DNA from: Candidatus Omnitrophota bacterium
Lineage (GTDB): Bacteria > Omnitrophota > Gorgyraeia > Gygaellales > UBA12090
Length of the DNA stretch: 64,000 bases
Reading direction: 5' to 3'
Assembly: GCA_030674475.1 (NCBI GenBank)
Contig: JAUSCZ010000041.1
Location: forward strand, 3,481-67,480
Shown one piece after another: positions 1,952 through 45,282 of this stretch. The notes beneath the pieces were generated by a model. The model was not told the DNA's origin. It ran no database searches and worked only from the letters and a program-made list of their open reading frames with translations. How positions within the stretch are numbered: the stretch's first letter is position 1; each line of letters begins with the position of its first letter. The position numbers and the translations under genes were made by a program.

Positions 1952-1953
1952 AA

Positions 1954-2934
1954 TTATTCTCCCTCCAATTCGCCTTTTAAGAGTTCAGACTTAAGAAGAA
2001 ACGCGCCGCCAACGACAACCTCATCCCCTTCTTTAATTTGGGCATTTCTTTCTTGAGAAGGAACATCCTCAATAAAAACCTCTTCTTTGGTTTCAGCTTT
2101 TACCTTAATTTTTCTTATCATAAATTTATTATCCCCTGTTTTAAGAAAAATAATCCTATCATTACCCATCGTTTGGACAGCATCAGCCGGCACCGACAGA
2201 TATTTCTCCCCGCCTTCTGATATAATATCGCCGCTGACAAACATACCCAATTTGAGCATCATATCTTTATTATCCACAATAACCCGGATTTTAATCGTGT
2301 GGCTGGTTTCATCAACTCGCGGAGAAATAAATATTATCTCTCCTTCAAACACTTTATCCGGATACGCGACAGTACGCACCGATACTTTCTGCCCTAGCTT
2401 AATTTCGGCAATATCTTTTTCATAAACTTCAAGCGTTGCCCATAATTTCGTGAGGTCCGCGATAGTGTAAATAGACGAGACAGTATCAACCCTGTCGCTT
2501 ACTTTAGCGAAAGCGCCGATCACAATACCCGCTATCGGCGCTTTTACCTCATGCAGGGATGTTTCCCCGTTTATTTTAGATACAACACAAAGTATTTCGT
2601 CTTTTTTGACGGACCAACCAATTTGAGCTTTGGCGTCAACAATCGTACCGATAACCGGCGAAACCACATGAACTGAAGTTTCCGCGTCCTGAGCAATCTG
2701 GCCGAAGACGGAAACCTTCTTTTTGAATACGCTTAACCGCGTTATGGCTGTTATTAAGTTAATCAATTCCTGCGATTCTTTGCTTAAAGACAGCTCTTCT
2801 GCTGCCGCTGCTTCTTCAGTACGCGTTTCGGCTGCGCGATCCTTTCCTATGCTCTTATTTAAAACGCCCTGGGATACCGCTATCCCCAGCACAAAAGAAA
2901 TCAAAACCACTGATACCAATCTTAAATTTTTCAT
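1954..2934 (-). CDS. RND efflux membrane-fusion protein (periplasmic adaptor, CzcB/CusB/HlyD family)
   Basis: 326-aa ORF with an N-terminal TM segment, a coiled-coil and beta-barrel adaptor architecture. It sits in an operon between the outer-membrane factor and the RND pump and overlaps the upstream gene by 4 nt. Confidence 0.8.
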   Translation of the reverse strand: MKNLRLVSVVLISFVLGIAVSQGVLNKSIGKDRAAETRTEEAAAAEELSLSKESQELINLITAITRLSVFKKKVSVFGQIAQDAETSVHVVSPVIGTIVDAKAQIGWSVKKDEILCVVSKINGETSLHEVKAPIAGIVIGAFAKVSDRVDTVSSIYTIADLTKLWATLEVYEKDIAEIKLGQKVSVRTVAYPDKVFEGEIIFISPRVDETSHTIKIRVIVDNKDMMLKLGMFVSGDIISEGGEKYLSVPADAVQTMGNDRIIFLKTGDNKFMIRKIKVKAETKEEVFIEDVPSQERNAQIKEGDEVVVGGAFLLKSELLKGELEGE

Positions 2935-4187
2935 CGTAAATATTCCTCCTTCCGAACCGACGCGTAAACAGTCTTTTCAAGTTCGTTTATGGCTTTGTTA
3001 AGGTTAAACAGCCCTTCGTAGTATTTAATTCTTGTCTCGGCCGCGGTTTTTACCTGATCAAGAAAATTAATAAAATCTATTTCGCCTTCACTATAGCGCA
3101 GGTTTGCCAGACGCAGCAGTTCGTTTGCCTCATCCAACGACTTTTTCAGTAATTCAAGCTGACGGTGAGTAAGCTCCGCGTTTAAATAAGCCTCGAAAAC
3201 ACTAAAAGCAAGTTCTCTTTTTGCCGCCTGGGTTTTCGCAATCTGGGCGTCTTTCTCGGCTTGGGCTTTTTTAACTTCCCCTTGATTTAGATTCCAGAAA
3301 GGAACACTAAAACCCACCACCAGACTTGAGTCATTCTCATATTCTTCGGTTGTCCTTTGAAACCCGACAAAAGGAGACGGTAGGCGGGAAAGCTTTTCTT
3401 TGGTCAGATTCGCGGCCTTTAAATTTAGAGCCAAATCCTCGGATTTAATCGCGGGGCTTTTAGAAAAGGCTTCTTGGGTTAATTCCTGAAGATCGAGCCG
3501 CAATTCCTCATCCTTAAGCTCCTCTTCTATTTCAAAAAGGTTATCCATCGCGCGGCCTAAAAGCAGGTTAAGCCTCGCCTTGTTTATTTTTAACTCTTTT
3601 TCCGCGAATAAATAAGAATTCTCCGCCTCAAAAAGCGCTATCTTTGCCCTCTGAACGTCATTTTTAAGCGCCTGACCGGATTGGAAACGCTGCTGTACCC
3701 GGCTGAAAAACTGCCGCAGGATATTAAGGTTTTCGTCTGCCAATTCCAGTTCTTTTTTATTTAAAATTATCCGGGAGTAAACCTCTCTCGCCTCGGCATA
3801 CACTTGCGACCAGACGGATTTAACTAACTCCTGCTGTAGTAATACTTGATTTCGCGCTATTTTGCTTTTTGCCCCGCGCACGCCCGGCGGATCAAATTCC
3901 TGCCTGACTTCAAGGCTGTCAAGATTTGTTTTACGCTCACCTGCTTCGTTCTTTTTCAATCCCCCTATTTCAAACTCGGCCTCCGGATTGGAAAATGTCC
4001 GCGCGGTTATTAAATCGCCTTTGGCCGCGTCAACGGCTTTCTTGGCTTCTACGATGCGAGGATTAAATTCAAAAGCCAATGACAAGGCTTTCTCTAAAGT
4101 TAACGGTTCCTCAGCCTGCGCCATCTTAGGAATACTACTTACAATAAATGCTATTATCGTGATGATACTTCGTATCTTCTTGTTCAT
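2931..4187 (-). CDS. TolC-like outer-membrane efflux factor (CzcC/CusC family)
   Basis: ORF 2931..4268. The likely true start is the internal ATG at 4185-4187 (MNKKIRSIITIIAFIVSS..., signal peptide). The coiled-coil-rich two-repeat OEP layout fits the family. It is the first gene of the tripartite efflux operon. Confidence 0.75.
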   Translation of the reverse strand: MNKKIRSIITIIAFIVSSIPKMAQAEEPLTLEKALSLAFEFNPRIVEAKKAVDAAKGDLITARTFSNPEAEFEIGGLKKNEAGERKTNLDSLEVRQEFDPPGVRGAKSKIARNQVLLQQELVKSVWSQVYAEAREVYSRIILNKKELELADENLNILRQFFSRVQQRFQSGQALKNDVQRAKIALFEAENSYLFAEKELKINKARLNLLLGRAMDNLFEIEEELKDEELRLDLQELTQEAFSKSPAIKSEDLALNLKAANLTKEKLSRLPSPFVGFQRTTEEYENDSSLVVGFSVPFWNLNQGEVKKAQAEKDAQIAKTQAAKRELAFSVFEAYLNAELTHRQLELLKKSLDEANELLRLANLRYSEGEIDFINFLDQVKTAAETRIKYYEGLFNLNKAINELEKTVYASVRKEEYLR

Positions 4188-9939: not shown

Positions 9940-10515
9940 TCAATCTTGGCTTTTACCGCAATTCGCTACCGCAGCCGCGTTTAAGCGCGTGTTCGCGTCC
10001 ACGACTTGCTGAATGAATTTTTCCTGCTCTCGCGATATCATTTTCAAAACCTTTGTTTTCTTTTTATGGTTAATCACGGAACCGGAAGGAACACACCGCT
10101 TTTCCGGAATAGCTGCCCCCTCTACTACCGCGAGATGTCCGACAAATACTTTATCCGCTAACGCGGATTTAAAAACCACGGAACCAAAACCGATAAAACA
10201 CTTCTTCCCGATTTTACACGGGCCATGAACAATACAACCGTGCGATAAAGAAGCGCTTTCTCCGATGATTACGGAGCTGTCCCCTAAAGCATGAATAATA
10301 ACCCTGTCCTGGACATTGCAATTATCGCCAATGGAAATAGAACTCCCGGGCTCATCAGCCCTGATAACCGCGCCGGGCGCGACGAATACGTTTTTGCCGA
10401 TACTGACTTTTCCGATAATTACGGCCAAAGGATCAATATAGGCTGTTTTGTCAATCTTCGGATAGCCGCCGCTGGAATTACGCCGTATCATGCCGGCTCC
10501 TTCATTATTAAACAT
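9940..10515 (-). CDS. Left-handed beta-helix (hexapeptide-repeat) protein, gamma-carbonic-anhydrase / PaaY-like
   Basis: Repeated [LIV]GxxxxI hexapeptides (VIIGKVSIGKNVFVAPGAVIRAD...SIGDNCNVQDRVIIH). Start uncertain; an internal ATG is possible. Confidence 0.65.
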   Translation of the reverse strand: MFNNEGAGMIRRNSSGGYPKIDKTAYIDPLAVIIGKVSIGKNVFVAPGAVIRADEPGSSISIGDNCNVQDRVIIHALGDSSVIIGESASLSHGCIVHGPCKIGKKCFIGFGSVVFKSALADKVFVGHLAVVEGAAIPEKRCVPSGSVINHKKKTKVLKMISREQEKFIQQVVDANTRLNAAAVANCGKSQD

Positions 10516-11563
10516 CTTTTTCTGACACCACCGAGGCTCTACGTAACCTGTCCATTATTGCCGCGCCCAATCCTTCTTCCTTCACGCCTTCGGCGATAAT
10601 AACGTCTACTTGGTCTTGGTCAAAATCTCTTAGCGCGGAAAACAGATTAGCGGCACAAAGAACAGCGTCATTTCCGGGACCAAATAACTTTACGTTGAAA
10701 TCTCCGTATCTATCTTTATTTTCAAATTTTGCCAGTATCCCGAAACGATACCCCCGCAAATCAAACTCGCGCGCCAAGTCTTTTACTTTCTCTACCTGCG
10801 TCTTGCCATTGCCTTCCACAATCAATATCTTCGCGTTCGGAGCATAATGCCGCGGATACATCCCCGCGGATAAAATACCGTCTTTTTTATAGAATTCAAT
10901 TTGAGGAATTATTCTTCGCAACTCCTCTATCCCGATTCCGCCGGGACGTAAAATAGAGAAAGGCTCCCGCGTCAAATCCACAATGGTTGATTCTACTCCG
11001 ATATTCGCGCTTCCACCGTCAATAACCAAATCGATTTTGCCATCTAAATCTTCGAGCACGTGTTGCGCGCTTGTCGGTGATGGCCTGCCGAAAAGATTAG
11101 CGCTGGGCGCGGCTACAGGAGTTTTGGCTTCTTTAATAAGGCTTAAGGCAATCTTATAATTAGGCATTCGCACCGCAACCGTATCTAAGCCGCCAGTCAC
11201 GATATCGGGAATTGCCTCCTGCTTTTTAAGAACAAGGGTAAGCGGCCCTGGCCAAAATTCGCCTATTAAGTCTAAGGTTATCTTGTCTACCTCACGCGCG
11301 ACTTTAAACAAATCCTGCTTATCGGCAATATGCACTATCAAGGGGTCTTCCAGAGGCCGTTTTTTTGCCTGAAATATTTTCGCGCAGGCAACCGGGTTCA
11401 AGGCATCCGCGCCTAAACCGTAGACGGTTTCGGTGGGAAAAGCAACTAAGGCGCCTTCTTTAATAATTTGGCTTGCCTTTTTAATTTTGGAAATGTCTGG
11501 CGCGTAAGCATCAATCTTTAAAATCTCCGTAACCATCTTATAAGCCTTAAAAAACAAATCCAA
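10508..11563 (-). CDS. tsaC: L-threonylcarbamoyladenylate synthase (Sua5/YwlC type: YrdC domain plus Sua5 domain)
   Basis: AFPTETVYGLGADALNP YrdC signature and a ~350-aa length consistent with the Sua5 C-terminal domain. The true start may be the internal ATG at MVTEILK. Confidence 0.8.
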   Translation of the reverse strand: MDLFFKAYKMVTEILKIDAYAPDISKIKKASQIIKEGALVAFPTETVYGLGADALNPVACAKIFQAKKRPLEDPLIVHIADKQDLFKVAREVDKITLDLIGEFWPGPLTLVLKKQEAIPDIVTGGLDTVAVRMPNYKIALSLIKEAKTPVAAPSANLFGRPSPTSAQHVLEDLDGKIDLVIDGGSANIGVESTIVDLTREPFSILRPGGIGIEELRRIIPQIEFYKKDGILSAGMYPRHYAPNAKILIVEGNGKTQVEKVKDLAREFDLRGYRFGILAKFENKDRYGDFNVKLFGPGNDAVLCAANLFSALRDFDQDQVDVIIAEGVKEEGLGAAIMDRLRRASVVSEKDV

Positions 11564-11623
11564 TTACAAATATTAATACAATTAACCTTTGCATGGCTCC
11601 TCCTTTTTATCTGGTTATTAAAT

Positions 11624-11989
11624 TCAAAAGCCATCTTTCAAATCTTTATTTAAAGTAAACATCTCAACCCTCTCTCCTGTTTCCGGATTAAAGCTTGAAT
11701 GGACATCAACCACTTCAGCGCCGGTTAATTCTTTTATGGTTTGTTCTAACAAAGGTTTAATCTTTTCGATAAGCTTTTCTTTTAATTCCTTTATCAATTC
11801 CATCCCCTCTTCTTTTTTGACCATCATTCTTTCTGCCGGAGGCAAGACCCCTTTAAATCTGACGATTATCGTATCGCCCGCCACTTCGGCGGCTGCTGTT
11901 TCAACCTGCTCGCCAATTTGCTCTTTTAATATCATAGTTAACTTCTGGCAAATCATCACTTCAACATCCTGTTTTGACTTAATAGTCAT
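11624..11989 (-). CDS. DUF2294 / MpsC-like small protein (paralog 1)
   Basis: 121 aa. It shares the IIVRFKGVLPPAE ... VVDVHSSFNPETGERVEMF pattern with the ORF at 15173..15544 (VLVRLKGVLTPAE ... VRSLHTDISTRTGERVIIF). RBS ggagg lies upstream. The family name is from memory. Confidence 0.5.
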   Translation of the reverse strand: MTIKSKQDVEVMICQKLTMILKEQIGEQVETAAAEVAGDTIIVRFKGVLPPAERMMVKKEEGMELIKELKEKLIEKIKPLLEQTIKELTGAEVVDVHSSFNPETGERVEMFTLNKDLKDGF

Positions 11990-12094
11990 AGTGCGGCCTC
12001 CTTTACATCAAGCAGGTTCCTCAATTCTCTTTTTTGCCCCTTTTATAGCCTCTTCATCATTAGTGCTCCGTCAAATTAATTCTTATGGGTAAGC

Positions 12095-12243
12095 GGAATT
12101 TGACTCCGCACTTCCGCTAGGGGGGCAAGCCCCCCCATTCGGCGCTCACTTCGCTGAGCACCCCCCAAACGTGGGGGACGGTCTCCCCCACACCCCCTTT
12201 AATGCACTGTCCAACACATAAGAATTTATTTAACAGTGCATTA
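12095..12243. other. GC-rich structured intergenic element (multiple hairpins; G-tracts on the minus strand) between purC and the DUF2294 gene
   Basis: gggggcaagccccccc and gtgggggacggtctcccccac hairpins, gcggagtcaaattccgc, and a 10-bp inverted repeat aatgcactgt...acagtgcatt overlapping the purC stop. The composition is strongly atypical for the surrounding AT-rich intergenic DNA. Confidence 0.4.
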
Positions 12244-13140
12244 GAATAATTTTAGCGCTTCTCCCGTAAACATCTCGAGGGCCTGTAAGTATTTTTCAGA
12301 GGTCTTTAAAACTATTTCTTCGGGCAATTCCGGAGCCGGTGCTGTTTTATCCCAATCCAACGTCTCAAGATAATCCCTCACGAACTGTTTGTCAAAGCTC
12401 GGCTGCGCCTGGCCCGGCCGATAGCGGTCTTTCGGCCAAAAACGCGAAGAATCCGGGGTTAACACTTCGTCAATAAGGATGACCTCGTCCTGGTATAAGC
12501 CAAACTCGAACTTCGTATCGGCAATAATTATGCCTTTTGGTTCAGCATACGCGCTTGCCTTTAAATACAGAGCCAGACTCAATTCTTTTAGCTGGGTAGT
12601 GATTTCTTTGCCCAGTTCCCGCTCTACGTAATCCTGCGAAACGTTAATGTCGTGACTGACATCTTCTTTGGTTGAGGGAGTAAAAATAGGCTCCGGCAGC
12701 TTATCCGACTCCTTAAGCCCGGAGGGCAATTTTAGGCCGCAAATTGACCGGCTTTGCTGATATTCTTTCCAGCCTGAGCCGGAAAGATAACCTCTTACAA
12801 TACATTCAACCGGTATGGATTTGGCTTTTTTGACCAGCATGGAGCGGCCTTTTAGAATATCCTTATATTTTGATAATTCTTCAGGGTAACCGTTGACCTC
12901 CGCGGTAATCAAGTGATTAACAACAATATCTTTGGTAAACTCAAACCAAAACAGGCTCAACTTAGTTAAAACTTCCCCTTTATGCGGTATGCAAGTAGGC
13001 AAAACCACATCAAAACAGGATATTCTGTCGCTAGATATAATCAAAAGCTTATCTTTTAAGTCATAGACATCTCTTACTTTTCCTCTTTTGAAAAAATCAA
13101 TCTCGGAAAAATTGGTCATTCGCAGTGGTTCAGCAGCCAT
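12241..13140 (-). CDS. purC: Phosphoribosylaminoimidazole-succinocarboxamide synthase (SAICAR synthetase)
   Basis: 299 aa, with the N-terminal GKVRDVYD motif and a SAICAR-synthase fold pattern. Confidence 0.85.
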
Positions 13141-13141
13141 C

Positions 13142-14971
13142 TTAAGCGCCGCCCCTATCTGTAAACCTTATAGAATCTTCTATATCTTCAGCAGGCCTGT
13201 TGTTATTTAACTGCTCTAATAACGCCTCGTACTCTTGCAATATCTCTTGAGGCAGGCGCCCGGAAAACTGGCCTAAGAACTTTTCAATATCCTGCAATTC
13301 TGCCTGCCATTCCTTAGGATTAACCTCAAAGAGTTTATCCAACTGCCGCGGCGGGATATTTAACCCCGACAACTCTAAGTCTTTGAGGCGAGGGATTAAT
13401 CCTATAGGGGTCTTATGGGCTTCAAGCTTGTTATTTACCCGGTCTAAAATCCATTTTAATACCCGGATATTCTCGCCAAAACCCGGCCAGATAAATTTAC
13501 CTTCATCATCAACTCTGAACCAGTTGACCGAGAATATCTTTGGCGGATGCTTTAATTTCTTACCGACGTTCAGCCAGTGCCTGAAATAATCGCCCATGTT
13601 ATAGCCGCAGAAAGGCAGCATTGCCATCGGATCCCTTCTTAATACCCCTTCCTTATGAATAGCAGCCGCGGTAGTTTCCGAGCCGGTCCTGGCCCCCAGG
13701 AACACGCCGTGCTGCCAATTAAAGGCCTCGGTAACCAAAGGGATCAACTGGGTCCTGCGTCCGCCCAGGATTATCGCCGAAATCGGCACGCCTTTAGGAT
13801 TATCAAATTCCTTGGAAAGCGTGGGTGAATTGTATATAGACACGGTAAAACGGGAATTGGGATGCGCGGCTTTTGTGTCTTTCGCGCTATCCCAGGGCTT
13901 ACCCTGCCAATCCAGCAAATTCTTAGGCACCGCCCCATCCAGGCCTTCCCACCACGGCTCATTATTGCCGGTATCTAAAGCGGTATTAGTAAAAAGGGTA
14001 GGATAGAATTTATCCGTTTTTAAAGTCCTAAGCATATTAGGATTGGTTTTCATTGAGGTGCCGGGAGCTACCCCGAATAATCCTGCTTCCGGATTAATCG
14101 CCCAGAGCCTTCCGTCGGAGCCGACGTTGAGCCAGGCAATATCATCTCCTAAAGTCCATACCTTATATCCGGGCAGCGCCGACTCCAGCATGGCAAGGTT
14201 AGTTTTCCCGCAGGCGGAAGGCAATGCCGCGGTAACATAGGTTACGTTTCCTTTAGGGTCCTCAATGCCCAGAATTACCATATGCTCGGCAAGCCAGCCT
14301 TCCTGAAAGCCCAGCCAGGAAGCGATTCTTAGAGAAAAACACTTCTTGCCTAATAAGGCATTCCCTCCATAGCCGGAGCCGATGCTCCAGACCAAATGTT
14401 CATCCGGGAAATGCATAATGAAACGTTTATTGGGATCCAGGTCGCCTATGGAATGCAGTCCCTTGACAAAATCTTCAGACTTTCCTATTTTCTCTATTGA
14501 CTTCTTGCTCATCCGGGTCATTACGCGCATACTTATGGCTACATAGGAAATATCGGTAAGCTGGACACAGGCCTTGGCATACGGCGAATCCGGATGCCCC
14601 ATCATATAAGGCAAGACATACATAGTCCTGCCGCGCATACAGCCGGAGGATAACGCGCGCATTTTTTCTTTTGCCTCGTCAGGCGCCATCCAGTTATTAT
14701 TCGGCCCGGCGGTCTCCTTATCAGAATGACAGACATAGGTCAGGTGCTCGGTGCGAGCCACATCAGTGGGATGGCTGCGATGATAATAACCATTCGGCCA
14801 GTCCTTCTGATTGAGTTTGTGAAAAATAGCCTGCCCGTTAATCTTCTCTTCCTTCATCCCTATCTCAATCAGCCTGCGGGCCTCTTCTTCCGAACCGTCA
14901 CACCAATAAATCTTATCCGGACAGGTCAGCCTTGCCTGTTCCTCAACCCACTTCTCAAGCGCTGTAGCCAT
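13142..14971 (-). CDS. pckG: Phosphoenolpyruvate carboxykinase (GTP)
   Basis: 609 aa with [21 protein letters not shown] (kinase-1a/P-loop region) and the overall GTP-PEPCK layout. Confidence 0.9.
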
Positions 14972-15007
14972 TTGTTCTTTTCCTCCTATTTTTTAAAATT
15001 AATGCCC

Positions 15008-15075
15008 AATAAAAAAGCCAACATCTTTTTCCGCTTTTTCACCAAAATGAAAAAGCGGAAAAACTGATGTTGGCT
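15008..15075 (-). terminator. Rho-independent terminator-like long hairpin downstream of the DUF2294 paralog-2 gene
   Basis: Minus-strand reading gives aagccaacatc-a-gtttttccgcttttt / aaaaagcggaaaaa-gatgttggctt, a stem of about 25 bp, followed by ttttttatt. Confidence 0.55.
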
Positions 15076-15172
15076 TACTTTATAGCAGCCCCCTTTAATT
15101 CAAGGGCGTCTACCGAAGTCTTCCAATCATTACTCAATAGATATTACACTAAAATCCTGATTTTGCAAGGGT

Positions 15173-15544
15173 TTACTCTTGGAACCTGGTTTCCAAATCC
15201 TGATCCAGGATAAAAATAATTACCCGTTCTCCGGTCCTGGTGCTGATATCAGTATGCAAGCTCCTTACCTGACAGCCGGTGATATTGACCACGATATTCT
15301 CCAATAAATGCCTGGCCGCGTCCAACAGGCTGACCCGGGTCTTTTTAATCAAATCCGCGCCCTCGGCGGTCTTGGCCAGCTGTTCTTCAGCCGGGGTAAG
15401 CACTCCTTTTAGGCGCACTAAGACCATATCCTTGATGATATAGGTCCGGGTTTCCGTAGGGCCCCGCCCCATATAATCCTTTTCAAACTTTATTATCGCC
15501 TCGCTTACCTGGGCCTCAGTCTGTCCTTTGGTTATCGCGCTCAT
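15173..15544 (-). CDS. DUF2294 / MpsC-like small protein (paralog 2)
   Basis: 123 aa and a clear paralog of 11624..11989. Its ATG at 15542-15544 abuts the duplicated feoA-tail repeat. Confidence 0.5.
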   Translation of the reverse strand: MSAITKGQTEAQVSEAIIKFEKDYMGRGPTETRTYIIKDMVLVRLKGVLTPAEEQLAKTAEGADLIKKTRVSLLDAARHLLENIVVNITGCQVRSLHTDISTRTGERVIIFILDQDLETRFQE

Positions 15545-15640
15545 TTTATCAGCCTCACATAAATGCTGGAGGCCAACTCCTTATCCACGGCAAACTGGGA
15601 CTGGCCCAACTGCAGGACATTAGGAAGGGACTTTTTGAGG
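15545..15640. repeat. ~95-bp direct repeat: non-functional duplicate of the 3' end of the dtxR-feoA gene (partner 16635..16728)
   Basis: About 93% identical to 16635..16728. It would encode ...LQLGQSQFAVDKELASSIYVRLIK* with the stop overlapping the ATG of the downstream DUF2294 gene. Confidence 0.8.
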
Positions 15641-15643
15641 ACT

Positions 15644-16216
15644 CTATCCATTTTTCATCAGTTCTTTCAACGGCCTTTCAAATCTATCAAGGATTTCCGG
15701 CATTTCCAGCACATCGGAAAATTCCTTAAGCCATTTTCTAAGATAAGCTACATCTAGTTTCTTTCCCTGACGCATGATTACGCTTTCTATATCAGCCAAA
15801 TCCCGCGGCCTTCCTGCCACCGCTTTATGAATAATGAGATCTTCCGCGGAGCATATTTTTACGATATGCCCCTTTCCTAGTTTACATTCTACTGCCCGGC
15901 TTATTACTTCTTCTTCATACCCGGGAATACCGAGGGAGATATCTACTTCATAGTCTTCTTTACTCCTGATAAGGCATATTCTGTTTCTAAGGGCAAATTC
16001 CATGGCATCAGGAATACGGGCGGAAAAAACCGAAAGAATTTTTTTTATAACCTTTTTTTCTTCACCTAAATTGACCAGGATGGTAACATCCACATCGCGG
16101 GTAAATCTCGGTTCTCCCCACCATTGAAGCGCAATTCCGCCAATAAGCGCGTAGGGAATACTTTCTCGCGTTAAAAATTCGTGAACCTCCCGCATTGTCT
16201 TTAACTGCGGATTCAT
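15644..16216 (-). CDS. Pol-beta-superfamily nucleotidyltransferase (MNT / AbiEii-like), putative toxin-antitoxin component
   Basis: 190 aa. ALIGGIALQWWGEPRFTRDVDV matches the hG[GS]-x9-13-Dh[DE]h NTase motif, and the C-terminal KAVAGRPRDLADIESVI resembles MNT/AbiEii C-terminal helices. It overlaps the upstream small ORF by 4 nt. Confidence 0.55.
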   Translation of the reverse strand: MNPQLKTMREVHEFLTRESIPYALIGGIALQWWGEPRFTRDVDVTILVNLGEEKKVIKKILSVFSARIPDAMEFALRNRICLIRSKEDYEVDISLGIPGYEEEVISRAVECKLGKGHIVKICSAEDLIIHKAVAGRPRDLADIESVIMRQGKKLDVAYLRKWLKEFSDVLEMPEILDRFERPLKELMKNG

Positions 16217-16470
16217 TGTCCTCCCCTAAATCTTCCTGCCCGGTTAAAAAACTGTCTTCTTTTTAGAAGGAACTCGATTTTTTTCTTCTGAAGTATTTCC
16301 CAACTTCCCTTCCTGGTTCCTTTTTCAGCTAATTCGCATAAAGCAATATACTCGCGAGACGAATCCTCTCCCGATAGCCGGGTGAGTCTCTTCTTCTTCT
16401 CTTCAGCAATCAGTTCATCAGCCCTTTTATGGCCTTCAAGAAAACTTAATATCGTATCTTTCCTAATCAT
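16213..16470 (-). CDS. Small hypothetical protein, co-transcribed partner of the nucleotidyltransferase
   Basis: 85-aa ORF with charged, helical-looking sequence. It has a 4-nt overlap with the downstream NTase gene. No recognisable family. Confidence 0.4.
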   Translation of the reverse strand: MIRKDTILSFLEGHKRADELIAEEKKKRLTRLSGEDSSREYIALCELAEKGTRKGSWEILQKKKIEFLLKRRQFFNRAGRFRGGQ

Positions 16471-16629
16471 CTTATCCTGCCCCTAACCTCTAAATCAGCT
16501 TTTAACCCGCCCGGAATTTGCGATAGAAACGGCACTCTTCTCTTTAGTCCTTATTTTAACACTATTTTAGATTAGTTCAATGCCGTTTTTCCTTTCACTT
16601 TTATTCGCTCTTTATAAAAAGGAAAAAGG

Positions 16630-17277
16630 TTATTTTATCAGCCTCACATAAATGCTCGAGGCCAGTTCCTTATCCACGGCAAACTGGGACTGGCCCAACT
16701 GCAGGACATAGGAAGGGAATTTCTGGAGCAGGTTTACCGACATACCCGGCAGGACCCCGATGCTCATTAACTTCTGCATTTGGGAATTGTCTTTAGCGTG
16801 CAGGTAGGCAATCTCGCCCTTGTCCTTAACTTCCAACTCTGAAAGAGAAGAGACAAATTTCATCACCCTGCCCTTCTTATTCTCTTTCGCCCCGCAGCAC
16901 CTTCCAGGCGGAATAGGTTTTCCGTGCGGGCAGACCTTAGGATGGCCCAAGACAATACAGACATTCTCCTCAACTCCCTCATGAAGAAGATGTTCAAACT
17001 TACAGCTGACTTCATTGATCCCCTTATCTTTGATATCCAGGACATCAACCAATAGCCGTTCCGCCAGGCGGTGGCGGCGCAGGGCCTTCTGGGCTTCGGT
17101 CTTTCCCTTATCCAAGAGATGGATATGGTCAACATCCCGGCGGATATAGCCTAATTTCACCAACTCTTCAATTGCCGGGTCATCCCGGCCCATCCCTAAA
17201 TCCAGGGGTTTCTTGCCCTGCTCCTCCATCTGCACTGCCAGGGCCTCTAATATTTCCTCCGCGTGTTCGGAAAGCAT
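16630..17277 (-). CDS. DtxR/MntR-family metal-dependent transcriptional regulator with C-terminal FeoA (SH3-like) domain
   Basis: RRHRLAERLLVDVL dimerisation/metal-binding region of DtxR. The C-terminal VKDKGEIAYL...LMSIGVLPGMSVNLLQKFP..YVLQLGQSQFAVDKELASSIYV is the FeoA pattern. Confidence 0.75.
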   Translation of the reverse strand: MLSEHAEEILEALAVQMEEQGKKPLDLGMGRDDPAIEELVKLGYIRRDVDHIHLLDKGKTEAQKALRRHRLAERLLVDVLDIKDKGINEVSCKFEHLLHEGVEENVCIVLGHPKVCPHGKPIPPGRCCGAKENKKGRVMKFVSSLSELEVKDKGEIAYLHAKDNSQMQKLMSIGVLPGMSVNLLQKFPSYVLQLGQSQFAVDKELASSIYVRLIK

Positions 17278-17295
17278 ATTTCCTCCCTTAATTAA

Positions 17296-18765
17296 TTATA
17301 ACGCTATATGCAAAAGGTTTAAAATAAGATTTACCAAATACCCTATACTAAAAGAAAAAAACAGGATAAATATTGACATCCCGATCCCCATTTTTATGCC
17401 CCGCTCCTTAACATTCATAAGCAACTGGGCAATGCAGGGCAGGAACAAAGTCAAGGTGATGCAGGATACCACTAACTGATTCCCGGAGAGCAATCCGGCC
17501 TTCTTTAAATCATACAGCCCGGCGGCCCCGTAATCCCGGCGGAAGAAACCGAACAAAAAGGCCACTGCCGCCTGATCCGGCAGGCCGAGGGCGCGGATAG
17601 GGTGTTCCAGGATTCTTACGCAGACACCAAAGATCCCTGTAATCTGGCCTAACCAGATAAGCAGGCTGGCAAAGATGAATAAAGGGAATATTTCTTTGAA
17701 ATACCACTTCAGGCGGCTCCAGGTCTTGCGCAGGACATTGGAAAACTGCGGCAGTCGTAATGGCGGTATCTCCATATAAAAGGTAGGCAGTTCCCCAGGC
17801 ATAATCTTAGCCGCCAAGAAACCCACCAGCAGGAAAACCAGAATAATTACCCCCAGCCAGACCACCAGGCCTAACGGACTACCCTCTAAGAGGGCAAAGA
17901 TCACCCCCATTTGTGCCGAGCAAGGAATAGCCAAAGCTAAAAGCAAGGTAGCAATAATCCGCTCCCTTTTAGTAGGCAGTGTCCGGGTAACCATTGTAGC
18001 CATAGTATCGCAGCCAAAGCCCAAAACCAAAGGTATCACTGCCCGGCCGGAAAGGCCTATCCTCTTAAACAACTGATCCACCAGCATTGCCAGTCTCGGA
18101 AGGTATCCGGTATCCTCCACAATGGCAAAGGCAAAGAAAAAAGTAGCCACTATCGGCAGAATTATAGCAAAGGCATAGCGCACCCCCAGGGTTATCACCC
18201 CGTATTCCCCCACCAAGAGATCCTGCAAAAGCTTAAACGGTATCAGGGCAGTTACCCACTGGGTTACCCAGGGATTGATATGATTTATAAAAACCTTGTT
18301 TTCCAGGAAATCCACCAGGAACCCGGAGCCAAAACTGCCCACGAACTTATACAGCCCGTAGTAGAGAACAAATAAAAGTATGGGCGCTCCGGTCAGCGGA
18401 TTCATCATAATCCGGCTCAAGCGCTCCTGTATGCCCATTTTAGGCTTACTCCCAAAAACCATCACCCGGCCGGAAATTAAGCTGGCCTCCTCTTGGCGGC
18501 GTAGGCTAATAAGATAGTTCAGCGGCTGAGAATAATGGGCCTTGGCCTCGCCAATAGCCTTTTCTATCTCAAAAAAATTCCCGGGCTCTTTTTCCTTGAC
18601 CAATCCCAGGATTTCCGCGTCCTCCTGTAAAAGCAGAAGGGCCAAGGAGCGCTTGGTTATTTTATAGCCGCTTCCCTGAAGCAAGGCCTCAATCCGGGAA
18701 ATATAGACCTCAATGGTATCGTTATATCCTACATTACAGCTATTTTTCGGCTCGGTTTTTGACAT
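17296..18765 (-). CDS. feoB: Ferrous iron transporter FeoB, helical and membrane domains (split gene, part 2)
   Basis: About 490 aa and polytopic. An N-terminal soluble helical segment (YNDTIEVYISRIEALL) is followed by the FeoB core membrane domain. The likely ATG is at 18763-18765. It overlaps the G-domain ORF by about 26 nt in another frame. Confidence 0.8.
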   Translation of the reverse strand: MSKTEPKNSCNVGYNDTIEVYISRIEALLQGSGYKITKRSLALLLLQEDAEILGLVKEKEPGNFFEIEKAIGEAKAHYSQPLNYLISLRRQEEASLISGRVMVFGSKPKMGIQERLSRIMMNPLTGAPILLFVLYYGLYKFVGSFGSGFLVDFLENKVFINHINPWVTQWVTALIPFKLLQDLLVGEYGVITLGVRYAFAIILPIVATFFFAFAIVEDTGYLPRLAMLVDQLFKRIGLSGRAVIPLVLGFGCDTMATMVTRTLPTKRERIIATLLLALAIPCSAQMGVIFALLEGSPLGLVVWLGVIILVFLLVGFLAAKIMPGELPTFYMEIPPLRLPQFSNVLRKTWSRLKWYFKEIFPLFIFASLLIWLGQITGIFGVCVRILEHPIRALGLPDQAAVAFLFGFFRRDYGAAGLYDLKKAGLLSGNQLVVSCITLTLFLPCIAQLLMNVKERGIKMGIGMSIFILFFSFSIGYLVNLILNLLHIAL

Positions 18766-19243
18766 ATTCCTCAATCTTTCCCCTTAAGACATCTATGCCT
18801 TTGCCGGTGGTAGAAACCGTCCCGGCGACCGGGATATTTAATTCCTTCTCCAGCCGGGCAATATCAATCCTTATTCCGGCTTTCTGGGCCTCATCCATAA
18901 TGTTTAAAACCAGGATAACCCCAAGGCCCGCCTCTAATAATTGCAGGGTCAGAGGCAGCATCCGCTCTAAATTCCGGGCATCAATCACATGCAGGATGAC
19001 TACCGGGCCCTCATCCAGCAAGATTGACCGGCCCACCCTTTCCTCCTCGGTTATAGAGAATAGGGAATACATTCCTGGGGTATCCACAATCTCAAACTGC
19101 TCATCCCCTATTTTGCATTTTCCGCGGGAGACCTCCACCGTTGTCCCGGGATAATTGGAGACCACGGCGTAACTGCCGGTGAGGCCATTAAAGAGGACTG
19201 ATTTACCTACATTAGGAGAACCGACTATGGCTATTTTACGCAT
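18740..19243 (-). CDS. feoB: FeoB N-terminal GTPase (G) domain (split gene, part 1)
   Basis: MRKIAIVGSPNVGKSVLFN P-loop (G1), DTPG (G3) and NIMD (G4). 167 aa ending ...YVKNRAEK*. Confidence 0.85.
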   Translation of the reverse strand: MRKIAIVGSPNVGKSVLFNGLTGSYAVVSNYPGTTVEVSRGKCKIGDEQFEIVDTPGMYSLFSITEEERVGRSILLDEGPVVILHVIDARNLERMLPLTLQLLEAGLGVILVLNIMDEAQKAGIRIDIARLEKELNIPVAGTVSTTGKGIDVLRGKIEEYVKNRAEK

Positions 19244-19887
19244 TAGCTTCCCCTTAAATCACTTACTATTTTTAGCGCCTTTTTCACCGCGGAGGCGGCA
19301 GCCCGTGAAGATATAGTTGCCGAAGTAACCGCGTCTATATTCCTGCCGACTACGATCTGGTCATTTAGGGACTTATCGCGAAACTGCTTCAAGAAAGACC
19401 TCCGTTTTATTTCCGAGCCGAATAGGTCGCGAAATTCCAGAACAAATATATCCACTACTTTTTCCTTATTATCTATGCCCACCAAAAAGGTGATAGGCTT
19501 AACCTTTCCCATCTCATCAAGCACAACTGCCCAACCGATGGTTTTCCCCTCTTGAATAATGGTGGAAATCTCAACCGGCTGGGCATTTAAAACTCTTTTT
19601 TCTGTTTTATGCTCCTGAAACAAAGGGAAAATCCTTCTTATCGCCTCTTCTCTTGTTATATATACTTCAGCGAAACTGATAGCTGAAAATAACCAAGACA
19701 AGATTGCTAAACTCAAGAAAAATCTGCCCTGCAGAGCAGAAACTTTTGGCAGATTTTTCTTGATCCTGAAGCGCTCGTTTCTATAACTTGTTGAAGCGCC
19801 GAAGGATCTGATATGGGTAACCTGATATACTTTCCTATGCTCCAAGAAACCTGCCTTTAAAAATTTAATCATAATAATTAGGGACAA
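19243..19887 (-). CDS. FMN-binding domain membrane protein (RnfG/NqrC-like FMN_bind)
   Basis: TM/signal segment plus the C-terminal VTSATISSRA motif, the conserved Thr/Ser flavinylation site of FMN_bind domains. It is co-oriented with feoB. Start uncertain. Confidence 0.6.
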   Translation of the reverse strand: MSLIIMIKFLKAGFLEHRKVYQVTHIRSFGASTSYRNERFRIKKNLPKVSALQGRFFLSLAILSWLFSAISFAEVYITREEAIRRIFPLFQEHKTEKRVLNAQPVEISTIIQEGKTIGWAVVLDEMGKVKPITFLVGIDNKEKVVDIFVLEFRDLFGSEIKRRSFLKQFRDKSLNDQIVVGRNIDAVTSATISSRAAASAVKKALKIVSDLRGS

Positions 19888-22045: not shown

Positions 22046-22094
22046 TATACTTGAAAAAAAAATTATGTCAAGTAAAATCTGCCTCTGGCGCTTA

Positions 22095-22159
22095 CCCCGT
22101 TAGAGATAGGTTGCCAAAGGCAACCGTCGGACACCTTCGGTGTCCCATCTCTAACGGGG
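22095..22159. repeat. 65-bp structured palindromic element, family P1, copy 1 (intergenic)
   Basis: ccccgttagagatagg ... cccatctctaacgggg outer arms enclose hairpins ggttgccaaaggcaacc and ggacaccttcggtgtcc. Flanked by ctta/ctta. Confidence 0.8.
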
Positions 22160-22174
22160 CTTAGATTTTACTTG

Positions 22175-23357: not shown

Positions 23358-25625
23358 TTAATTCGGCGAATACCTCTCTTTGCCCTGCTCCACAAACAGC
23401 CCGGTATCCGCGATCAACAGCACTGCCCGGAAGTCCGGGGTAGTTTCTACTCCTCGCTCTTCCTTCAGCCAGCAAAGCCGCAGGAGAAGCGGTAATAATT
23501 GGATCTCTCTTTGCGCGTTAAAGGCGTCCTTCTGGGACATCGCCGCCAGTAAACGCTTAAGCCGGTCGGTTGAAACCTCTATCTTGGCATTAATCATCTG
23601 TTCCATTGCGGCCATTTCCCGGCTTATATCAATCCCCTCCAATTCCGCCTTACTCAACAGCGGCAGGCGCAGGTCCAACCCCTGGAAGCTTCCCATCGGC
23701 CGGGTGAGGTAGTTGATTCGGGTGAAGTCAATACCGCCGGTAGTTAACGGTGAATTACTATTTTGAGATAAGTCTTGAGTTAATGCCGAAGAGACCTCAT
23801 CCGATTTCAAAAGACCTAATTTATTGGCGGCGGCTTTTGATAAATTCTTGAATCCATCAACCAACGGTTTCAGCGCACTTTTAAGTTCTGGATCTGTAAT
23901 CTTCCCCACATCTTTAACTAAATTGCTTATCGCGCTATTTAAAACATCTAAATCTTTATCTTTCTCTATTCTAAGATCGGCATAATGGAAGTAACCATTA
24001 AATATCTCTCTCCATTTCGGATGATCCTTATAGCTACGAGATAATAAAGTAAGCTGATCCTTAATCGTTTTCTTGGTCTCCTCTACCGTCAGCGGCGAAG
24101 AGCCGGTCTCTTTCTCCTTCTCCAAATATTCTTGAGCTTCATTAAAAACATTAATTAGTTTTTTATCATTCGCATAGGTTCTACTCAGGGATTCAATTGT
24201 GTTGTTTAAGGCCTCAACAACCTTTTTTCTTTGCTCCCTATTCAAATCAGAGAAAGCACGCTTCAAATTTATCTTCCAACCTATATACGCGAACTCTACT
24301 CCTTCCCCATTACCTTCTCTCGCTATTTTTTCCAAATCAATAAGAAAACCATGATTAGCTGATGCTATTGCGTTCAATCTTTCTTGGCTTTCTATGATCC
24401 CAGTTGGCTCAGATAAATGGTTATGTATTGAACCGCCCACAAAAGCACCGCTCACGATAAGTATCGCAAGTCCGACAAGCGTAGACTTTTTCATCTTTGT
24501 TAATAGTGGACTTCCTGCCTTAAAACCGCCTTCAATTAAAGGCTTAGAGTTCCCGGTCATATCTGTTCCCCCGCTGACATAGCTCCTGATTACCTGGCCG
24601 GTGGGAGTGGTTATCTGTTCCTTAAGGTTGTATTCACCCTGCTGGAAGGACTTTTTGTATTCGCTAAAGTAGTAGTCCTTGGTCCAGGCCTCTTTTGAAA
24701 TAAGATTATCTAAGTTATGGCTGTCAATCAGGCTGGAGTATTGGCCGGGCTGGCCTCTGAACTTGTCCTTAAACCAGCGGGAAAGGATGAGCGAGAAAAA
24801 GACCTGGCGGAGTTGGGCGTATTTCTTGGAGGTATTGACCTCCTGGGTGAGCTTGGGCAGGATGAGTTCTCTAATTAGCTGGGTAGAGTATTGGTTGAGT
24901 TTCTTCATCCTTTGGTCATTAAAATTATACTGGTGACCTGGTGACATGGTGTCCTGGCGACTTTTAATGTAATCTTCCTCCAGCATCACTTTCAGGTTCG
25001 CCTTGTAGATATAGGATGAGTCTTCGCTTTCTCTGATTATTACCTCTCCCGGCACTATCCAGGGCCGAGTGATGGTGGGGATAGTAATGTTTTCAGTGCC
25101 GAATAATTCCCCAGCCCTCTTATACAGCTTATCCCAGTATTCTTTGCCTTCAGGAGTTTGGGGCGAGGTCCAACCGGCAGTATCTTTCTTTAGCTGTAAG
25201 TCCGCCTCCAGCATTATCTTACCCATATCGGTCTTTTCTAACTCCGGGTCTATAATCTGCTCCGGGGCATCCGGCCTAAGATTTACCCAAAACTTGTCGT
25301 TGGGTAAGGATAGACCTATCAAGAAATAATTGAATAGCTTCTTGGTCTCATTCTTAAGAGCATTCTCCGATTTCTCCGGTGACCTGGTGACCTGGTGACC
25401 TGGTGACTTCTCGAAGTCACCCTGGTCTAATAACAGCTTAAAGTCATTGCTTTTGATATCGTAAGAGATATACCGTAGGTGAGGGGGACGAAAGCTATCC
25501 GTATTCAAGGCCGACATTTGGTTCAGGTATTTGCCGATATTCAGCTCGGCTACTCCCTGAGCAAAGATGGGTTGGGTTAAAATCAGGCTATGGGATAGAA
25601 TTAAGGATATGGCTTTTTTGAACAT
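23358..25625 (-). CDS. Large hypothetical secreted/membrane protein (755 aa)
   Basis: Signal peptide and an internal TM (LVGLAILIVSGAFVGG). No recognisable catalytic motifs. It carries two in-frame copies of the octamer-repeat element. Confidence 0.5.
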   Translation of the reverse strand: MFKKAISLILSHSLILTQPIFAQGVAELNIGKYLNQMSALNTDSFRPPHLRYISYDIKSNDFKLLLDQGDFEKSPGHQVTRSPEKSENALKNETKKLFNYFLIGLSLPNDKFWVNLRPDAPEQIIDPELEKTDMGKIMLEADLQLKKDTAGWTSPQTPEGKEYWDKLYKRAGELFGTENITIPTITRPWIVPGEVIIRESEDSSYIYKANLKVMLEEDYIKSRQDTMSPGHQYNFNDQRMKKLNQYSTQLIRELILPKLTQEVNTSKKYAQLRQVFFSLILSRWFKDKFRGQPGQYSSLIDSHNLDNLISKEAWTKDYYFSEYKKSFQQGEYNLKEQITTPTGQVIRSYVSGGTDMTGNSKPLIEGGFKAGSPLLTKMKKSTLVGLAILIVSGAFVGGSIHNHLSEPTGIIESQERLNAIASANHGFLIDLEKIAREGNGEGVEFAYIGWKINLKRAFSDLNREQRKKVVEALNNTIESLSRTYANDKKLINVFNEAQEYLEKEKETGSSPLTVEETKKTIKDQLTLLSRSYKDHPKWREIFNGYFHYADLRIEKDKDLDVLNSAISNLVKDVGKITDPELKSALKPLVDGFKNLSKAAANKLGLLKSDEVSSALTQDLSQNSNSPLTTGGIDFTRINYLTRPMGSFQGLDLRLPLLSKAELEGIDISREMAAMEQMINAKIEVSTDRLKRLLAAMSQKDAFNAQREIQLLPLLLRLCWLKEERGVETTPDFRAVLLIADTGLFVEQGKERYSPN
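24930..24961. repeat. Degenerate copy of the ggtgacct-octamer element inside the 755-aa CDS (encodes ...SPGHQYNF...)
   Basis: ctggtgacctggtgacatggtgtcctggcgac flanked by attaaaa/ttttaat. Confidence 0.6.
25370..25409. repeat. 40-bp octamer-repeat element inside the 755-aa CDS (encodes SPGHQVTRSP)
   Basis: atttctccggtgacctggtgacctggtgacctggtgactt, followed by the hairpin ggtgacttctcgaagtcacc. Near-identical to 63157..63197 in leuS. Confidence 0.85.
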
Positions 25626-28522: not shown

Positions 28523-29830
28523 TCAAGGCAATGTTACTACTTGTTCATATAAGCTCTCAATATCTTTTATCAGCCTTTTTTTGGCGAATCTTTCCCGGAC
28601 GAATTCGCGGCCGGAGGCGGCCATCTTCCTTCTTATCTCTTCATTCCTCAGTAAGAAGTTCAAGGCCCCGGCAAAACTATCCGCGTCGCCAGGCCTCACC
28701 ATTATTCCTCTTTCGCGCGCGCTAAACCCCGTTAGAGGCAGGACGCCAGAGGCGTCCGACGGTTGCCTTCGGCAACCTGCCTCTAACGGGGTAAACCCAA
28801 GCTCATCCTTAGGTCCTTCTAAGCTCTCACCAACTAAATCCTTTACCCCGCCGGCATCGGTAGCCGCGATAACCTTACCTGAAGCCATTGCTTCTATTAA
28901 AGATACCGGCGTGCCTTCGTTGATTGAAGTCAGACAGACAATATCCAAATCCGAGTAAACTTCGGATAAATCCTTTTGCCAGCCGTTAAACTCCACCACC
29001 GAACTTAAATTCAGCTTTTGGGCAAATTCTTCAAGCTCAGCCCTTAATTCTCCATCGCCTATAATCTTAAATCTTAAATCCAGCGCGGGATTATCCCGGA
29101 TAACCTTGGCCGCGCCTTCCAAAAACAAACGATGATTTTTAATAGGCACCAGTCTTCCCACTATGCCGATATTTAAACAACGGTTGGCTTCTTTTCCCGA
29201 TGAAGCGGGATCCCGCATTCCTTGTATCGGGAGTCGGGAAAACGGAAGCCCTAAGAATCTATCTAATTCTAAGCCCAGAGGAATAACCTTAATCTTATCT
29301 GAACCGCTGATTCGTAAAGAAACCAGCTCTTTCTTAACCGCTAAACTTACCGTGATTATCCTTGAGCTAAAACAAGCTAAGAAGCGCTCAATAAAGATAA
29401 ATAATCGCGTTTTAAATCTGCCGAAATAGCCCTCAAAGACATGGCCGTGAAAGGTATGAATAAGCTTTGTTCGCCTCGCGGCCAAGAGATTATAAAATAT
29501 CCCGGCCAGCCTGCCTAATGTTCCGGCCTTGGCGGTATGGGTATGGATAATATCCGGATTTTCCCTCCTTATCAGTTTATATATTTTTAAAAACGCGATT
29601 ACATCATTCAGCGGATTTAATTCCCGTCTAAGCTCAGGGATAATATAAGGGACAACATTCCTGGCCCGGGCGTAATAAAGCATATCTCCTTCATCTTGAG
29701 CGATAGTGCCGCAGACCAAAAGCGAGTCAAATTTATCCTTGTTAAGACCCTCAGTGAGTAAAATCGCGTGAATTGCCGGGCCTCCGATATTAAGCCGGGC
29801 AATGACCCTTACTACCTTTATTTTCTTCAC
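28523..29830 (-). CDS. GT4-family glycosyltransferase carrying an in-frame 69-bp repeat-element insertion
   Basis: 435 aa with the N-terminal GGPAIH and C-terminal EGTPVSLIEAMASGKVIAATDAGG ... VRPGDADSFAGAL GT4 motifs. An extra 23-aa segment PLEAGCRRQPSDASGVLPLTGFS is encoded by P1 copy 2. Confidence 0.8.
   Translation of the reverse strand: MKKIKVVRVIARLNIGGPAIHAILLTEGLNKDKFDSLLVCGTIAQDEGDMLYYARARNVVPYIIPELRRELNPLNDVIAFLKIYKLIRRENPDIIHTHTAKAGTLGRLAGIFYNLLAARRTKLIHTFHGHVFEGYFGRFKTRLFIFIERFLACFSSRIITVSLAVKKELVSLRISGSDKIKVIPLGLELDRFLGLPFSRLPIQGMRDPASSGKEANRCLNIGIVGRLVPIKNHRLFLEGAAKVIRDNPALDLRFKIIGDGELRAELEEFAQKLNLSSVVEFNGWQKDLSEVYSDLDIVCLTSINEGTPVSLIEAMASGKVIAATDAGGVKDLVGESLEGPKDELGFTPLEAGCRRQPSDASGVLPLTGFSARERGIMVRPGDADSFAGALNFLLRNEEIRRKMAASGREFVRERFAKKRLIKDIESLYEQVVTLP
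28727..28791. repeat. 65-bp structured palindromic element, family P1, copy 2, inserted in-frame inside the GT4 CDS
   Basis: ccccgttagaggcagg...cctgcctctaacgggg are perfect 16-bp arms. Inner hairpins ggacgccagaggcgtcc and ggttgccttcggcaacc are in inverted order relative to copy 1. Flanked by taaa/taaa. 65 + 4 = 69 bp = 23 codons. Confidence 0.85.
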
Positions 29831-33044: not shown

Positions 33045-33141
33045 CTTCTAAGTCTCTGGGGACAAAATAAAACCCCGCGCCTTTTCATATTCATGTTTTT
33101 CAAACTAAAATACATAGAATACATAAAAGGCACGGGGTTAA

Positions 33142-33208: not shown

Positions 33209-33229
33209 AACACGAATAATTTTTAAAGC

Positions 33230-44422: not shown

Positions 44423-44433
44423 TTTCTTCCTCC

Positions 44434-45274: not shown

Positions 45275-45282
45275 ATTTTGAT

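Follow-up and report, generated by a model that had tools for sequence, protein, structure and literature searches.

A putative MenAT-type toxin-antitoxin cassette bracketed by a duplicated dtxR-feoA gene end, and less diverged than its flanks, in an Omnitrophota genome

In a 64-kb stretch of an uncultivated Omnitrophota genome (contig JAUSCZ010000041.1; hereafter the window), a 992-nt insert made of two genes separates dtxR-feoA, coding for a DtxR-FeoA fusion regulator, from mpsC (DUF2294). The first gene of this cassette codes for an 85-aa protein and the second for a 190-aa nucleotidyltransferase (NTase), and two copies of the last ~95 nt of dtxR-feoA bracket the pair. The explanation that we favor, and consider probable, is that a MenAT-type toxin-antitoxin (TA) module was placed at this site by an insertion that left a long duplication of its target, was spread by homologous recombination of the host and was held by addiction. 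Together with the displaced gene tail at its far side (hereafter the relic), the cassette is much younger than the surrounding chromosome, and other Omnitrophota lineages have it beside the same gene end or accompanied by the same relic. The mode of insertion belongs to a known but little-studied class; the new elements are the TA cargo and the evidence for a duplicated target that travels with the cassette. The movement of chromosomal TA and defence cassettes without any mobility gene is largely unexplained, and the locus provides a pair of occupied and empty sites whose junctions are defined at base level.

The flanking repeat was located by a repeat search and by BLAST within the window. 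The former returned a pair of direct repeats of 95-97 nt each (Table 1), and the latter aligned positions 15543-15637 with 16632-16725 over 95 columns at 93.7% identity with one 1-nt gap (E 2e-36), in agreement with the original prediction of a 95-bp tail repeat at about 93% identity. The next-best matches within the window are 12-mers, and the repeat is present in two copies in these 64 kb. Each copy corresponds to the final ~31 codons and the stop of dtxR-feoA. All genes of the region lie on the minus strand, in the order feoB (two open reading frames, ORFs), dtxR-feoA, a 159-nt spacer, the 85-aa ORF, the 190-aa ORF, mpsC/DUF2294 and GTP-PEPCK. The 4-nt overlap of the two cassette ORFs and the GG-x13-DVD motif of the second, both noted earlier, were recovered by inspection of the ORFs and motif. 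Copy B is the genuine 3' end of the 215-aa DtxR-FeoA gene (...SIYVRLIK, encoded by ...KFPSYVLQLGQSQFAVDKELASSIYVRLIK) and terminates precisely at the stop codon, which is TAA instead of the native TGA. Copy A is the relic and is found after the NTase stop (TAG, 15646-15644) and ahead of mpsC; it ends with CTGATAAAATGA, and its TGA overlaps the ATG of mpsC as AAAATGA, as had been proposed. It retains the GAGG ribosome-binding site native to mpsC as well as the ATGA overlap, and certainly preserves the ribosome-binding site and start context of that gene. The cassette sits exactly at an overlapping stop/start junction of two iron-related genes, both of which are kept intact by the duplicated tail.

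Over the final 25 codons the two copies differ at 4 nt, all synonymous. Close to its 5' end, copy A is longer by a 1-nt insertion (CCTAATG vs CCT-ATG), which sets these codons in frame with an ATG (15651-15649) overlapping the NTase stop. The resulting 36-codon mini-ORF was considered as a selected micro-protein and rejected: in L026, the second occupied locus described below, the ATG reads another frame and the FeoA-frame relic has three amino-acid replacements, so the mini-ORF is probably incidental.

One genome per species was scanned with DtxR-FeoA, yielding 15 loci. An empty site is found in the three nearest relatives, L001 (GWA2_41_15-like), L002 (GWF2_43_52) and L003 (UBA12090). There, both flanks of the window align to adjoining sequence, the two window copies correspond to one tail copy, and the overlap of dtxR-feoA with mpsC/DUF2294 reads CTGATAAAATGA. 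Because the junction is single-copy in these three genomes, the coupling of dtxR-feoA to mpsC is ancestral and the cassette is an insertion, which supports the original prediction both in what it observed and in how it interpreted it. More distant relatives have another gene downstream of dtxR-feoA. The occupied arrangement recurs in L026, an independent metagenome contig that includes both junctions and is 90.3% identical to the window over 3973 nt, and the extent of the insert is the same in both. Farther along L026, PEPCK is directly followed by a hexapeptide-transferase gene (window 10495-13145 vs L026 3958-4283), and tsaC/sua5, a second MpsC paralogue (11624-11989) and purC, which are present in the window, are absent from that position. 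Moreover, the phylogeny of the flanks is mosaic when window positions 13000-19500 are compared with L001-L003, dtxR-feoA being closest to L003 (synonymous divergence, dS, 0.42) and mpsC and PEPCK to L002 (dS 0.35 and 0.73), which places a recombination breakpoint at or near the junction.

The cassette and its surroundings have diverged to different degrees between the window and L026. Synonymous differences affect 24 of 177 sites in the cassette (0.135) against 201 of 505 in dtxR-feoA and PEPCK (0.398; Fisher p 2e-11), and dS is 0.15 for the cassette and 0.53-0.65 for the flanks, with mpsC intermediate at 0.29. The synonymous divergence of the chromosomal flanks thus exceeds that of the cassette by a factor of about 3-4, an observation that is new here; nucleotide identities along the locus are listed in Table 1. 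Both window copies of the repeat share two derived states (CAG and GAT), where the L026 copies and all relatives have CAA and GAC, which indicates exchange between the copies or a recent arrival.

Table 1. Features of the dtxR-feoA/mpsC locus and of the second duplicated junction in the window, with nucleotide identity to L026
Feature	Coordinates	Strand	Evidence	Identity to L026
feoB, two ORFs	18740-19243 and 17296-18774	-	gene-order listing	
dtxR-feoA fusion regulator, 215 aa, intact	16630-17277	-	Pfam Fe_dep_repr_C 6.5e-23, FeoA 2.5e-12; full-length match to orthologues L001-L013	87.5% (gene body)
Repeat copy B, functional dtxR-feoA 3' end	16632-16728	-	repeat search, BLAST, translation	91.7%
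Distal upstream spacer of cassette, sigma-70-like site	16546-16631	-	87/87 identical to L026 over 16632-16546	100% (87/87)
Proximal spacer and ribosome-binding region of 85-aa gene	16471-16545	-	variable; 71% identical to L026	70.7%
Putative antitoxin, 85 aa	16213-16470	-	unannotated small-protein family, three predicted helices	95.3-95.6% (cassette genes)
MenT1-like (AbiEii/DUF6036) NTase, putative toxin, 190 aa	15644-16216	-	Pfam, PDB, AF2/Foldseek	95.3-95.6% (cassette genes)
36-codon relic mini-ORF (MDRVLKKSLPNVLQLGQSQFAVDKELASSIYVRLIK)	15541-15651	-	ATG overlaps NTase stop; TGA overlaps mpsC ATG	
Repeat copy A, displaced dtxR-feoA tail relic	15543-15639	-	repeat search, comparison with L001-L003	90.5%
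mpsC/DUF2294, ancestral downstream partner of dtxR-feoA	15173-15544	-	Pfam MpsC 2.2e-40; adjacent in L001-L003	93.0%
GTP-PEPCK	13142-14971	-	gene-order listing	88.4%
Upstream copy at murJ/uvrC: murJ end intact (...IQWILRKK stop), uvrC start a relic	51018-51087	-	repeat search	
Downstream copy at murJ/uvrC: murJ end a relic, uvrC start intact (MDIKEKISLFPDSPGVY)	43803-43872	-	repeat search	

The relic also accompanies the cassette elsewhere. The junction between the NTase stop and the relic is identical in kind in the window, in L026 and in L016-L019, which come from other samples. The NTase of the latter is 92% identical to that of the window, and their cassette ends in the same NTase-stop/FeoA-tail junction among other neighbors: on the upstream side a VapC fragment and DUF6290-ParE, on the downstream side cas3. 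The L016 cassette shows a dS of 0.25 to that of the window, below the dS between the flanks of the window and those of L026, and the L016-L019 relic is ~23-26% diverged from the window relic, in line with the cassette value. More distant cassette homologues (77% aa identity) do not harbor any FeoA-like tail, so the tail is a captured relic that arose once and is not original to the family. In L032 (1170-1510) and L033 (1-400), dtxR-feoA is intact and shares only 76% identity with that of the window. Behind it come 9 nt and then what is left of the NTase gene, its last 117 nt (90% identical), with no FeoA relic; the L016-type downstream region comes next, followed by an ORF6N gene and a CRISPR repeat resembling type I-C. 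Judging from their sequence, the simplest reading of these two contigs would be that a third lineage has a decayed cassette at this same gene end. The low divergence of the cassette and the presence of its relic in other contigs suggest a recombinase-free horizontal spread through carried homology. They provide quantitative evidence that cassette and target relic have spread horizontally, by a route that would be homologous recombination.

A single ancient illegitimate insertion inherited vertically ever since, in which the cassette would have lost its mobility, with the low divergence and the other contexts arising from ordinary strain recombination or sampling, would also account for one shared junction, which implies one founding event, and the mosaic flank phylogenies indicate that homologous exchange is common here. 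However, this explanation seems unlikely, since at synonymous sites the cassette has diverged about one third as far as the flanks by proportion and about one quarter as far by dS, the L016 cassette is nearer to the window's than the window flanks are to those of L026, and the 90%-identical NTase fragment of L032 lies beside a dtxR-feoA of 76% identity.

No integrase, transposase or recombinase domain was detected in the ORFs of at least 90 aa scanned between 1.9 and 52.6 kb of the window. The insert ends carry no terminal inverted repeats, and a 95-nt duplication is unlike the short target duplication of fixed length left by insertion sequences, transposons or miniature inverted-repeat transposable elements. 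The repeat shows no single-strand fold or attC-like hairpin (z +0.16 and +0.45 against shuffles), and Rfam gave nothing relevant in the whole window at gathering thresholds, or in L016, L026, L032 and L033 at E values up to 1. In addition, a profile scan did not find the cassette family in viral contigs, and tblastn against plasmids gave no convincing carrier, the sole match being 29% identical on a Spirosoma plasmid.

Prophages and integrative and conjugative elements integrate in the 3' ends of protein genes and bring a replacement end with them, as e14 and phage 21 do at icd. The present locus shares with them a rebuilt gene end beside the element, a displaced native end at the far side, and copies whose differences over the last 25 codons are synonymous; the exact end of copy B at its stop, with TAA rather than the native TGA, and a relic that travels with the cassette would also fit. 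The cassette could thus be the remnant of a classical site-specific integration, from a larger element that carried its own copy of the dtxR-feoA tail in attP and has since lost its integrase along with most of its length, or it could be mobilized in trans by an integrase encoded elsewhere. We regard this origin as improbable, because no integrase or recombinase was found in the scanned part of the window, the element is only 1 kb long and has the same extent in L026, no core site could be identified, and homologous cassettes elsewhere are bracketed by unrelated duplications of 90-230 nt and share no single conserved att site.

The 190-aa protein passes the Pfam cutoffs (in brackets) of AbiEii with 35.9 bits (22.5), of DUF6036 with 28.8 (23.6) and of DUF2204 with 28.8 (20.3), consistent with the AbiEii/MNT affiliation first proposed for it, and matches the AbiEii models of PADLOC (E 1.7e-6). 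Among solved structures the only sequence match is MenT1 of M. tuberculosis (8AN4, 8AN5 and 8RR5; E 9e-8 to 8AN4), a tRNA-modifying toxin in which the four residues T39, D41, K137 and D152 were mutated (Xu et al. 2023, PMC10435456). In the phmmer alignment to 8AN4 these residues stand opposite T39, D41, K131 and D139 of the window protein, which are invariant across 24 homologues. The AlphaFold2 (AF2) model has a predicted local distance difference test score (pLDDT) of 90, and its top five PDB matches in Foldseek are all MenT1, the best being 8AN5_B (template modeling score 0.77-0.79, E 3.7e-9, ~21-23% identity in the structural alignment). The protein thus has the Pol-beta NTase fold along with the conserved catalytic set. 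The gene is under purifying selection, with a dN/dS (ratio of nonsynonymous to synonymous divergence) of 0.12 against L026. By homology, the NTase would block translation by extending the 3' ends of tRNAs.

Compared with Pfam, NCBIfam, PADLOC and PDB, the 85-aa protein has no match. A profile built from 11 partner sequences and run against all PDB chains gave nothing better than E 0.23, and nothing to 8AN5 (the MenA1 = Rv0078B chain); its identification as MenA1 or another solved relative was dropped. The AF2 model consists of three helices at low confidence (pLDDT 65), too weak for a fold search. The family comprises 88 clusters, all but one made of small proteins (60-124 aa), the exception being a marginal 400-aa match. 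The gene is also under purifying selection (dN/dS 0.18 against L026), and a homologue of 80-95 aa lies directly upstream of the NTase, abutting or overlapping its start, in every context examined (~11), which confirms the pairing proposed at the outset. In the spacer preceding the gene, a sigma-70-like site is found (TTGAAC-16-TGTTAAAAT, 16580 to 16553). The distal spacer (16546-16631) is present, among the fetched loci, only in the window and L026, and the proximal spacer of L026 resembles that of L016. The 87 nt after the dtxR-feoA stop (16546-16632) include a weak hairpin (z about -1.6 to -1.9).

The pair resembles MenAT1 (Rv0078B-Rv0078A; PMC10435456, 8AN4/8AN5) in that a small helical protein (68-85 aa) that does not bind DNA precedes a short NTase (~190 aa) of the DUF1814/AbiEii superfamily with a conserved T39/D41/K/D set, and in that MenT1 is its best PDB match in both sequence and fold. 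It differs from MenAT1 by a low identity (~21-23%), by a partner with no detectable similarity to MenA1, and by an activity that is predicted here from homology. The insert is probably a self-contained MenAT-type module, composed of a promoter-like site, the 85-aa helical partner and a MenT1-like NTase with predicted toxicity, and the 85-aa protein would act as its antitoxin. By its sequence, the module adds one more member to the MenT family, and with it an unannotated family of 85-aa partners.

The pair is often found inside type I cas operons. It lies inside or beside such operons in 6 of the ~11 contexts: between cas6 and cas8 (L039-L043), beside cas6 (L045), upstream of cas8c (L023 and L022) or of cas3 (L016), and near a CRISPR repeat (L033). 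TA modules are commonly found in defence islands, and the cas-operon location may reflect an addiction module guarding the cas genes or plain co-location in such islands. These contexts could also mean that the pair is a type I CRISPR-Cas accessory, regulator or effector, of which the dtxR-feoA copy is a stray. We consider this very unlikely, because the copies in the window, L020, L021 and L046 have no cas neighbors and sit among other TA pairs, the NTase is homologous to a characterized toxin with its catalytic residues intact, and TA modules are, as mentioned, common in defence islands. As for an artefact of assembly, in which a short repeat of a metagenome-assembled genome would have given rise to a chimeric join, the closest relatives are all metagenome-assembled and repeats of ~95 nt can mislead short-read assemblers, but it is excluded for practical purposes, since both junctions recur in the independently assembled L026 at 90% identity and the NTase/relic junction in four more assemblies from three samples.

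The insertion with target duplication and subsequent recombination that we favor can be described as follows. The cassette would have entered the overlapping stop/start junction of dtxR-feoA and mpsC, with duplication of the last ~95 nt of dtxR-feoA, so that neither the C-terminus of the regulator nor the ribosome-binding site and start context of mpsC is lost. The founding step would have been an illegitimate join, for which a TCCnnAAA microhomology at the junction of NTase end and tail is available if the L032-type flank is ancestral, and no element-encoded recombinase would have been involved. Spread would then proceed by host homologous recombination, either as flank-mediated allelic replacement between close lineages or through a circle. 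In the latter case a ~1.09-kb circle would be excised by recombination between the repeats and would re-integrate in a Campbell-type event at any sufficiently similar dtxR-feoA tail. Either route would regenerate the flanking duplication, and addiction by the toxin would oppose loss via the same repeats. The model is testable, as the target duplication itself would serve as a portable homology arm.

Several points weigh against this scenario. Neither a circle nor a tandem arrangement was observed. For L016, relocation and the same site in another lineage are indistinguishable from the sequence upstream, and the L016 unit is devoid of the distal 87-nt spacer expected of a permuted window-type circle. 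The rise in similarity reaches partly into mpsC (dS 0.29), and the pattern of the window and L026 would be explained, with no need of a circle, if close lineages had exchanged alleles through the flanks in the ordinary way. The microhomology depends on the L032-type flank being ancestral, and the evidence for exchange between the copies consists of just two shared derived sites. Finally, the 85-aa partner shows no similarity to MenA1, and both toxicity and its neutralization are predicted from sequence.

A stronger version of the scenario is possible but rather doubtful. The cassette would be a minimal, recombinase-free mobile element whose sole integration machinery is a captured 95-nt end of its target gene. 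Released as a circle, it would be re-inserted by RecA at the dtxR-feoA tails of diverged Omnitrophota; the toxin would penalize its loss, and repeated rounds would build arrays of TA and defence genes. If this were true, the arrays found in Omnitrophota and Brocadia contigs and in the second island of the window, described below, would be integron-like cassette arrays without an integrase.

Insertion with long target duplication has been described for restriction-modification (R-M) complexes (Nobusato et al. 2000, Gene 259:99; Furuta, Abe & Kobayashi 2010, PMC2853133; PMC3874152). This class is characterized by long target duplications of variable length, with no further mobile element present and the site empty in a relative's genome, and several of the published repeats also overlap gene 3' ends (PMC2853133, PMC3874152). 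Its authors proposed an R-M-wide property such as double-strand breakage, together with a cycle like that of a virus, in which the unit inserts, is amplified through its repeats and is released (PMC2853133, PMC3874152). The present case shares with the class a small addiction-type unit without mobility genes, flanking direct repeats of tens to hundreds of bp that are a single copy in the empty-site relative, and a repeat length that varies from case to case (here 70, 95 and ~230 nt), and the published cycle of insertion, amplification-release and re-invasion fits our data. Regarding the definition of Furuta et al., the repeats exceed 30 bp (95-97 nt) and align to one copy in L001-L003, and the insert is below 20 kb (992 nt) and free of genes for integrases, transposases or prophage functions; a TA pair takes the place of the R-M system as cargo, and we therefore call the case a variant, not a member in the strict published sense. 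In a brief search of the literature, no description of this class with TA cassettes was found. Further differences are the host, an uncultivated member of the Omnitrophota, a relic seen to travel with the cargo, a cargo younger than its flanks, and the fact that double-strand breakage by the cargo is not available to an NTase TA pair. As a tRNA-directed NTase cannot supply a DNA break, the case argues for a cargo-independent mechanism and against the cargo-made break proposed for R-M systems.

The same layout is present at a second locus of the window. As had been proposed for the larger island, a 7.1-kb segment (43873-51017) is bracketed by a 70-nt duplication of the overlap between the murJ stop and the uvrC start. 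Its cargo comprises an AAA_21 ATPase with RloB, a helix-turn-helix protein with a split HipA, an unannotated 268-aa protein and ParE/RelB. No empty site was found for this island among the relatives, because the closest ones carry an ABC-F gene between murJ and uvrC. The suggestion of a shared style of integration thus stands insofar as the layout recurs at murJ/uvrC, but not the suggestion that it is peculiar to this genome, since the architecture matches the class described for R-M systems (PMC2853133). Three direct repeats, termed S (43986-44100, 45347-45442 and 48302-48464; 75-90% identical), divide the sub-cassettes of the island; they read like a relic gene 3' end (LKFDGYFPG.GK.IR..FEE.KFGIE stop), and this peptide has no match in Pfam.

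Similar duplications are found around related cassettes in other genomes. A homologous cassette (72% aa identity) lies between mutS and cas8c with a ~230-nt intergenic duplication on both sides, in L024 (3318-3706) and L023 (1098-1325), two overlapping contigs of a single locus. TA arrays with direct repeats of 90-200 nt between cassettes (up to 230 nt with the L024/L023 locus) are present in L046 (Brocadia; 684-3711), L022 (761-3361), L021 (588-1798) and the window island, and these repeats fold weakly and form no hairpins. The sequence GACACTGTTCACYGACACYGACACTRAT is common to L046 (Brocadia) and L022 (Omnitrophota), and TTGARAAGACAGRGATATGR to L046 and L024, the latter motif being absent from the window. 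Successive insertions with duplication at one site would, as a hypothesis, yield such arrays. Integron cassettes are likewise ~1-kb units, often encoding TA pairs, in arrays split by direct repeats, as in L046, L022 and the second window island; the present repeats differ from theirs in that they are not hairpin-forming attC sites and that no IntI gene lies nearby, and the dtxR-feoA repeat is coding sequence of the target.

Some further features of the window were noted. The two feoB ORFs overlap by 35 nt and code for an N-terminal GTPase (167 aa) and a membrane part (492 aa, TTG start). The GGTGACCT repeats (D2) were considered as island boundaries and rejected, as they are in-frame coding insertions in LeuRS and a secreted protein. 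An identical 35-nt stretch of this repeat at 25375-25409 and 63163-63197, with a degenerate copy at 24929-24963, is in frame (SPGHQVTRSP) in the leucyl-tRNA synthetase gene and in that of an unannotated 755-aa protein, a micro-insertion common to two unrelated coding sequences. An 82-nt palindromic repeat that resembles repetitive extragenic palindromes (CCCCGTTAGAGGCAGG...CCTGCCTCTAACGGGG) occurs in three copies that are 62-77% identical (22083-22164, 28715-28796 and 33130-33211). Finally, a unit of ~270 nt is present as three tandem copies (61-83% identical) at 55967-56761, inside a 1542-aa ORF (55374-60002).

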